DNA of 64,000 nt from assembly GCF_003334335.1 (NCBI RefSeq), contig NZ_QOWQ01000006.1, one strand, 5' to 3'. Positions 21,096 to 21,460 of this stretch are shown here, one piece after another (position 1 is the stretch's first letter; each line of letters opens with the position of its first letter). The translations under genes were made by a program, and so were the position numbers. The notes under the pieces are model-generated. The model was not told the origin of the DNA. It was given only the letters and a program-made list of their open reading frames with translations, and made no database searches. The stretch comes from Escherichia coli (GTDB lineage: Bacteria; Pseudomonadota; Gammaproteobacteria; Enterobacterales; Enterobacteriaceae).

Positions 21096-21286
21096 TCCCT
21101 GCTATGCAAGATGTTAATTCCGCTTCTCTTTCTATGAGAAAATTTCATTAATATCAGGCATTCTTTTTCATTATGATCAAAATCATATAATTGTTCCGTT
21201 ATTATGCGACCATATGAATATATCCGAAAAAGGATATGTGAAATTTATACGCTAAATGTTTAGTATTGTTAAATATTAAGGGTAAA

Positions 21287-21460
21287 AGGATGTTTATCGC
21301 CTGGTACTGGATTGTATTGATTGCTCTGGTTGTGGTGGGTTATTTCCTGCATTTGAAACGTTATTGTCGGGCGTTTCGCCAGGACAGAGACGCACTGCTT
21401 GAAGCGCGGAACAAATACTTAAACAGTACGAGAGAAGAGACAGCCGAAAAGGTAGAATAA
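21287..21460 (+). CDS. small single-TM membrane protein of unknown function
   Basis: ORF with hydrophobic N-terminus (MFIAWYWIVLIALVVVGYFLHL) and charged C-terminus; start 21266 or 21287 ambiguous; not recognised with confidence. Confidence 0.45.
   Translation, partial: RMFIAWYWIVLIALVVVGYFLHLKRYCRAFRQDRDALLEARNKYLNSTREETAEKVE

Follow-up and report, generated by a model that had tools for sequence, protein, structure and literature searches.

The small open reading frame situated between ribB and zupT in the analyzed stretch of Escherichia coli DNA is yqiD, and we put the probability at about 0.9 that this identification holds and that yqiD is a genuine, translated gene encoding a 56-residue bitopic inner-membrane protein. 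The gene is already known, in that it has been named, annotated, and experimentally detected. The stretch of DNA, below called the window, comprises 64,000 nucleotides of contig NZ_QOWQ01000006.1 (assembly GCF_003334335.1). YqiD is one of many validated E. coli small membrane proteins without a function, and the 40-residue conserved core, the residues W5, A28, and R30, the conserved cysteine, an upstream palindrome, and the existence of two alleles are starting points for finding one.

Identity and Detection of yqiD

The initial annotation of this DNA, made from the sequence alone, described a small-protein ORF of 58-64 amino acids but could not assign it to a family. Database comparison identifies it as E. 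coli yqiD (b4756 according to a 2026 paper), listed in RefSeq as "protein YqiD" and starting at an ATG (Table 1). When window positions 21030-21530 were used in a megablast search, they displayed 100% DNA identity over the 501 nucleotides to records where the CDS is annotated as yqiD. Full-length matches to this segment are found in 4,425 of 5,426 complete E. coli genomes, with the small CDS annotated as "yqiD: protein YqiD", and yqiD itself is matched in all 5,426, with a median of one place per genome. The gene order in a K-12-like record is ubiK, the FMN riboswitch, ribB, yqiD, zupT (convergent), and ygiD.

In E. coli K-12 the gene is found between zupT and ribB at 3183381-3183551 (VanOrsdel et al., 2018, Proteomics 18:1700064; PMC6001520). 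The K-12 protein does not differ from the one encoded in the window; the 56 amino acids, the location between ribB and zupT, and the strand relationship are all the same. YqiD has been observed by chromosomal SPA-tagging and immunoblotting of LB cultures, and a signal for yqiD in tetracycline ribosome profiling was noted in the same study (PMC6001520). Translation, one of the checks suggested in the initial annotation, is thus documented by published data.

The ORF was listed mechanically as 64 codons starting from a TTG (21266-21460, plus strand). This start was rejected, as 1-nt indels between the TTG and the ATG break the frame in related bacteria, and the suggested size has to be reduced to the 56 residues counted from the ATG at 21290. 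The Shine-Dalgarno sequence is separated from this ATG by a 7-nt spacer. Many spurious ORFs of 50-90 codons are found near yqiD in the window, and the length of the ORF by itself is therefore not above chance. It is because of its conservation, the selection acting on it, and the published detection that yqiD is considered a real gene.

In the searchable literature no functional experiment on YqiD was found; the papers concerning the E. coli gene are the detection study, a paper on NAD-RNA where the name is an axis label, and a promoter-variant reporter study. The yqiD of Bacillus subtilis, an ispA homolog, is a different gene carrying the same name, and the "YqiD" mentioned in a reviewer comment to a paper on tail anchors (PMC5525287) has no relation to the small protein.

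Table 1. Features of the yqiD region. Positions refer to the window.
Feature	Position	Strand	Details	Basis
ribB intrinsic terminator	21059-21097	+	Hairpin and T-run; left boundary of the yqiD unit	Terminator scan, inverted repeat
AT-rich yqiD upstream region, holding the probable promoter	21090-21289	+	About 30% GC	GFP reporter primers; conservation
Palindrome, candidate operator	21172-21187	+	TATGATCAAAATCATA, core ATGAT-N4-ATCAT; CRP/FNR-type geometry	
Second conserved block, candidate -10 region	21200-21219	+	TATGCSA..(T/C)ATAKGAAT	Alignments
Shine-Dalgarno sequence	21278-21282	+	AAGGG; AAGGG or GGAGG in nearly every related locus	Sequence
yqiD CDS	21290-21460	+	56 aa, MFIAWYWIVLIALVVVGYFLHLKRYCRAFRQDRDALLEARNKYLNSTREETAEKVE	RefSeq WP_000469266.1; identical to the sequence of VanOrsdel et al. 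(2018)
Predicted transmembrane segment, residues 2-22	21293-21355	+	W5 invariant, W7 nearly so	Hydropathy, charge, alignments, AF2
Conserved juxtamembrane helix, residues 23-40	21356-21409	+	KRYCRAFRQDRDALLEAR; predicted to be cytoplasmic	Alignments, per-locus translations
yqiD terminator	21478-21519	+	Perfect 13-bp stem with 5-nt loop, followed by ATGTTGTTTTT; overlap of the tail with the zupT stop codon	
zupT, convergent neighbor	21518-22291	-	ZIP-family metal permease	RefSeq annotation

Family Membership and Conservation

A word-indexed search of 5.8 billion proteins identified 108 relatives of YqiD, found in Escherichia, Citrobacter, and Salmonella, and when 1.84 billion cluster representatives were searched exhaustively with HMMER only 19 hits were obtained, more distant ones included. 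Scanning 100,044 species genomes with a pattern yielded 42 loci. These are from Escherichia, Citrobacter, Salmonella, Intestinirhabdus, Enterobacter sp. kpr-6, Kosakonia, Phytobacter, and Pseudocitrobacter, in addition to one locus from a Pseudomonadales MAG (L050), which was rejected as a false positive since the match is limited to N-terminal hydrophobic words.

The reading frame, the start codon, and the Shine-Dalgarno sequence are kept across at least seven enterobacterial genera. The frame is open in 41 of the 42 fetched loci, where it encodes 51-74 amino acids with the start pattern M/V-[FYLV]-[IV]-x-W, and almost all of these 41 have AAGGG or GGAGG in front of the start codon. The gene is under strong purifying selection. 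The median dN/dS of the core (Nei-Gojobori, codons 1-42) is 0.08 for 242 informative pairs, with values of 0.03-0.13 in the comparisons with Citrobacter, Salmonella, and E. albertii, while reading this DNA in the other two frames gives pseudo-ratios of 1.07 and 1.41. The variability is 0.20, 0.14, and 0.40 at the first, second, and third codon positions, respectively. Conservation of the frame in related genomes, another check that had been suggested, thus came out in favor of the gene.

The relatives share the N-terminus MFIAW, and the signature of the family may be written as M-F-I-A-W-Y-W, a hydrophobic stretch, and G-Y-x-x-H-x-K-R-Y-C-R-A-F-R-Q-D-R-D-A-L-L. M1, W5, A28, and R30 are invariant, while I3, W7, R24, R33, and A35 are conserved in at least 90% of the sequences. 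A cysteine is found at position 26 or 29 in nearly all of the 40 full-length relatives (at 29 in the Kosakonia locus L048). The E. coli protein contains one cysteine and one histidine, and additional histidine or cysteine residues are found in the juxtamembrane region of the Kosakonia and Citrobacter proteins.

Some of the relatives carry the label DUF4051. This label is used by NCBI and UniRef for Salmonella and Citrobacter homologs that are 63-80% identical to YqiD over nearly the full length, and five labeled proteins (P0028, P0038, P0042, P0076, and P0077) match YqiD with E-values from 1e-17 to 1e-20. The assignment of YqiD to DUF4051 is based on homology to the labeled proteins and not on a model score. 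Searching Pfam-A with YqiD and 19 members of the family gave no DUF4051 row, the model apparently being absent from the library used; the hits obtained, to DUF2621 (8e-4), DUF4381, and DUF6526, were weak and compositional. No significant match to YqiD was found in NCBIfam (best score 18 bits, cut-off 50), PADLOC, or PHROGs, and neither single-sequence nor profile searches of the PDB sequences gave any match.

Architecture of the Protein

The initial annotation proposed a single-TM protein with a hydrophobic N-terminus and a charged C-terminus, and this description agrees with hydropathy, charge distribution, and structure prediction. Residues 1-22 are uncharged, with 19-residue Kyte-Doolittle means of up to 2.4, while residues 23-56 include nine lysine or arginine and seven aspartate or glutamate residues. 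AF2, run with an alignment of 33 sequences, models YqiD as a single helix covering residues 2-55 with a pLDDT of 71; the values are 84-87 in the transmembrane part and 54-69 beyond it. The protein thus has a single predicted TM helix, is shorter than about 60 residues, and contains no catalytic domain.

The uncharged residues 1-22 probably constitute the membrane helix. The positive-inside rule would then predict an N-out/C-in orientation, with the K23-R24 flank and the net-basic helix of residues 23-40 in the cytoplasm. The last 15 residues or so, which are not conserved in the alignments, seem to make up a variable charged tail.

Upstream Region and Transcription Unit

The gap between ribB and yqiD (21029-21289) is, as the initial annotation stated, AT-rich, with 31% GC compared to 50.7% for the window. 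The conserved sequence upstream of yqiD has an abrupt edge at the palindrome, about 120 nt from the ATG, and the sequence farther upstream is not conserved across genera. The palindrome is found at -115 to -118 relative to the ATG in all 27 loci from Escherichia, Citrobacter, Salmonella, and Intestinirhabdus as well as in the window, and a variant is located at -75 in Enterobacter sp. kpr-6. The (T/C)ATAKG element of the second conserved block lies about 42-45 bp downstream of the center of the palindrome, and together the two would fit the geometry of a class II CRP/FNR-type promoter, which would place the start of transcription near 21220-21225. In the general form xATGAT-N4-ATCATx, the palindrome has A at the position where G is preferred by CRP and T by FNR. 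A scan with the FNR consensus allowing two mismatches gave 35 matches where 34.9 were expected, and as an FNR site the palindrome is thus not above chance. When Fur and Zur consensus sequences were compared by eye to the upstream region no convincing match was seen. A literature search using the palindrome as a string retrieved only an unrelated CRP site at ppiA/tsgA, and nothing relevant was found in the literature on zupT, ribB, and FNR.

In K-12-type E. coli a perfect TATAAT, not conserved in other genera, is found at 21186-21191. In a 2025 preprint, positions 21090-21321 were cloned into a GFP reporter to represent the regulatory region of yqiD, and a consistent difference in expression was reported between the yqiD allele of the window and the diverged E. 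coli allele. The Kosakonia and Phytobacter loci (L037-L044, L047-L049, L004, and L008) have no palindrome. They display a strictly conserved CTACTTATAAAGTGGTA about 100 nt upstream of yqiD, which may be the promoter or operator of the gene in these genera. A sequence resembling the half-sites of the yqiD palindrome, CTGATGATCATCATCAT with overlapping repeats of the ATGAT/ATCAT type, is located at 22339-22355 in the divergent promoter region between zupT and ygiD.

RNAalifold gave -3.5 kcal/mol and no covariation for the conserved leader, indicating no conserved RNA structure, and a search of the region against Rfam identified only the ribB FMN riboswitch above threshold and no sRNA. The 3' end of ribB with its terminator (21027-21097) matches STnc240, a Salmonella sRNA, below threshold (29.1 bits compared to a gathering score of 55, E = 0.13). 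This match may represent a 3'-UTR-derived fragment or be due to chance.

The ribB terminator, which had been proposed to flank the small ORF, is present as a hairpin at 21059-21090 followed by a T-run. Downstream of yqiD, the inverted repeat 21478-21490/21496-21508 is a perfect match over 13 bp (-24.9 kcal/mol, z = -4.1). The initial annotation regarded it as a terminator shared with zupT. The repeat is indeed perfect and physically shared, but in the direction of zupT the hairpin, which begins 10 nt after the zupT stop codon, is followed by CCAGCUUCACG and no U-tract. Since the T-tract is found on the plus strand only, the structure is a canonical intrinsic terminator for yqiD alone and a bare hairpin for zupT. 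Equivalent hairpins are found in E. albertii, in the variant E. coli allele, and in Salmonella, and are absent where the stop codons of yqiD and zupT nearly abut.

As already suggested in the initial annotation, yqiD seems to be transcribed independently. A conserved upstream block, a Shine-Dalgarno sequence, and a terminator all belong to it, and the gene remains intact in genomes where operons of 3.6-5.5 kb are inserted between ribB and yqiD. Co-transcription with ribB as the main mode of expression is unlikely, as these operons are encoded on the opposite strand and the upstream block is retained. Some readthrough from ribB into yqiD may take place in K-12-type genomes.

Genomic Context in Related Bacteria

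In 39 of the 42 genome loci zupT and yqiD converge, with the stop codons 8-100 nt apart. Table 2 displays the five gene arrangements found. They indicate that yqiD is lineage-restricted, that its upstream side is a hot spot for insertions, and that its own promoter block travels along with the gene. They also imply that none of ribB, zupT, and assT is an obligatory neighbor of yqiD. In the arrangement lacking yqiD the stop codons of ribB and zupT are so close that any terminator between them would be common to both genes.

Table 2. Gene arrangements around yqiD. Arrowheads give the direction of transcription.
Arrangement	Found in
ribB> yqiD> <zupT	K-12-type E. coli, several Citrobacter, Kosakonia, Phytobacter
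ribB> <dsbI dsbL assT yqiD> <zupT	C. freundii complex, Intestinirhabdus, S. arizonae; gene remnants in S. diarizonae
ribB> <chaperone-usher fimbrial operon yqiD> <zupT	989 of 5,426 E. coli including EAEC 042; E. whittamii, E. albertii
ygiD> <dsbI dsbL assT yqiD> <ygiC	Pseudocitrobacter; zupT not adjacent
ribB> <zupT, 32-65 nt apart, without yqiD	Enterobacter cloacae complex, Cronobacter (L052-L054)

The assT-dsbL-dsbI cluster is encoded divergently from yqiD at positions 415-3603 of L030, and equivalents are found in L014, L017, L019, L020, and L027-L029, in L045/L046, and in L005-L007. The intergenic sequence proximal to assT, GTGTGATCTTG..CATTGTTTT, is recognizably homologous at the ribB/zupT and the ygiD/ygiC positions. 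In S. diarizonae (L026) and in L023 only remnants of assT and dsbI are found. The 5-kb chaperone-usher fimbrial operon divergent from yqiD is located at 13413-18366 in L003 and at 11421-16395 in L051, and is also found in L012 and L013. In K-12 the fimbrial operon is ygiL-yqiGHI, and it lies beyond ubiK. One or two copies of Ibs-family type I toxin genes, which are unrelated to yqiD but encode genuine small toxins, are found between hldE and yqiK in the fetched E. coli records (8914-8973 in L003, 20835-21271 in L051).

Possible Roles of YqiD

Being a helix of 56 residues, YqiD is not an enzyme. AcrZ, MgtS, MgrB, KdpF, and CydX are small enterobacterial membrane proteins that act on larger membrane proteins (AcrZ on AcrB, MgtS on MgtA and PitA, and MgrB on PhoQ), and YqiD resembles them in having fewer than 60 residues, one TM helix, and no enzymatic motif, as well as in being encoded by an independent or accessory gene restricted to enterobacteria. 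It differs from them by showing no sequence similarity, by its unusually long conserved basic cytoplasmic helix, and by not being encoded in an operon with a candidate partner. By analogy with these proteins, the chance that YqiD, anchored in the membrane, modulates a larger inner-membrane protein is estimated to be slightly below even. The strongest constraint is on the single TM helix, the juxtamembrane face rich in alanine and arginine, and the conserved cysteine. A larger inner-membrane protein would be bound by the TM helix together with this face (R24, A28, R30, R33, A35, and the cysteine), and the binding would tune the activity or the stability of the partner. Transcription would most likely start in the conserved block of about 120 nt containing the palindrome and the -10-like element, and would end at the hairpin with its T-tract.

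The partner might be the neighboring metal permease, with YqiD as a lineage-restricted post-translational regulator or accessory subunit of ZupT that may sense metal through its juxtamembrane cysteine and histidine residues. MgtS, MntS, and KdpF are small proteins that regulate cation transporters. The two genes are convergent in most loci, insertion of operons on the far side of yqiD leaves it beside zupT, and the zupT promoter has been reported to be constitutive and devoid of regulator sites, which leaves room for post-transcriptional control. The cysteine at position 26 or 29 and the extra histidine or cysteine residues in Kosakonia and Citrobacter might take part in such sensing, but the E. 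coli protein has only one of each. The adjacency says little, as ubiK, ribB, zupT, and ygiD are syntenic in close relatives. Obligatory co-occurrence or co-transcription was not found; the genes are convergent and each of them occurs apart from the other, since the E. cloacae complex and Cronobacter keep zupT without yqiD, and yqiD of Pseudocitrobacter is situated between assT and ygiC, away from zupT. Nor do the two genes co-vary, as the diverged yqiD allele ends at the zupT stop codon and is accompanied by an identical ZupT. A specific tie to ZupT is thus considered unlikely. Even if other envelope systems encoded beside yqiD, such as AssT/DsbLI, are included, it is marginally less probable still that YqiD is a lineage-specific regulator of ZupT or of one of these systems, expressed under the control of a CRP/FNR-family factor binding at the palindrome. 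Regulation of ZupT by YqiD would, if true, represent a post-translational control of broad-spectrum metal uptake in E. coli that has not yet been described, and the genera that keep zupT without yqiD are natural "knock-outs" for functional comparison. A functional tie to assT-dsbL-dsbI alone, which encodes a periplasmic arylsulfate sulfotransferase and its dedicated disulfide system, is quite improbable. The order dsbI-dsbL-assT on one strand followed by yqiD on the other is found at two chromosomal positions with homologous assT-proximal sequences, and several genera have such a divergent promoter region. K-12-type E. coli, Kosakonia, and Phytobacter, however, have yqiD without an adjacent assT, and in those E. 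coli that do carry the cluster it is located two genes away and not beside yqiD. Moreover, AssT and DsbL are periplasmic, whereas a cytoplasmic location is predicted for the conserved portion of YqiD, and since fimbrial operons also enter on the upstream side of yqiD, this may be a mere insertion hot spot.

In size and in having one hydrophobic helix, here N-terminal, YqiD is similar to the type I toxins Hok, Ldr, Ibs, and TisB, and it could be a small hydrophobic peptide whose expression damages the membrane. Convergent transcription from zupT past the hairpin lacking a U-tract could supply the antisense RNA. This explanation is nevertheless very improbable. When tagged at its native locus, YqiD accumulates in ordinary LB cultures (PMC6001520). 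Its expression is constitutive and detectable, and yqiD is a single-copy, syntenic core gene in E. coli that is under strong purifying selection across genera. No cognate antisense sRNA was identified, the Rfam search of the region giving none, no toxin or defense model was matched in NCBIfam, PADLOC, or PHROGs, and a long conserved charged helix such as that of YqiD is not what is seen in the minimal pore-forming toxins. Least probable of all is that the yqiD region acts only as RNA or DNA, be it as the 3' UTR of ribB, as antisense to the 3' end of zupT, or as a spacer. Chance alone produces many ORFs of such length in the window, and the transcripts must overlap where the stop codons of yqiD and zupT nearly abut. 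The dN/dS is, however, 0.08 in frame and above 1 out of frame, the start codon and the Shine-Dalgarno sequence are conserved, and the protein has been detected (PMC6001520), while no Rfam family matches yqiD and the leader shows neither conserved structure nor covariation. A purely non-coding role is effectively refuted by the pattern of selection together with the published immunoblot.

Two Allele Classes in E. coli

Two classes of yqiD alleles are found in E. coli, the K-12 type in 4,433 and a variant in 989 of the 5,426 genomes. The variant was studied in the loci L002/L003 (NZ_CP148423.1) and L051 (E. coli 042) by comparison with window positions 21160-21515. The cores of the two alleles are 78% identical at the nucleotide level with a dS of about 1.4, which is a genus-level distance, and the proteins differ in 17 of the 56 residues, most of them located in the tail. 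The divergent segment extends from upstream of yqiD through the terminator, its end coinciding exactly with the zupT stop codon, and beyond this point the identity is 100%. Within this segment, positions 21250-21309, containing the Shine-Dalgarno sequence and the first codons, are 100% identical. The only annotation carried by the variant is "hypothetical protein". In EAEC 042 the variant CDS, at 10669-10839 in L051, adjoins the fimbrial operon. It has been found that orf3334 of EAEC 042, described as belonging to the "DUF4051 family", is upregulated in an aar mutant as one of three upregulated genes among 23 tested, the others being aggR and aap (PMC5570504). This orf3334 is a putative counterpart of the variant yqiD CDS.
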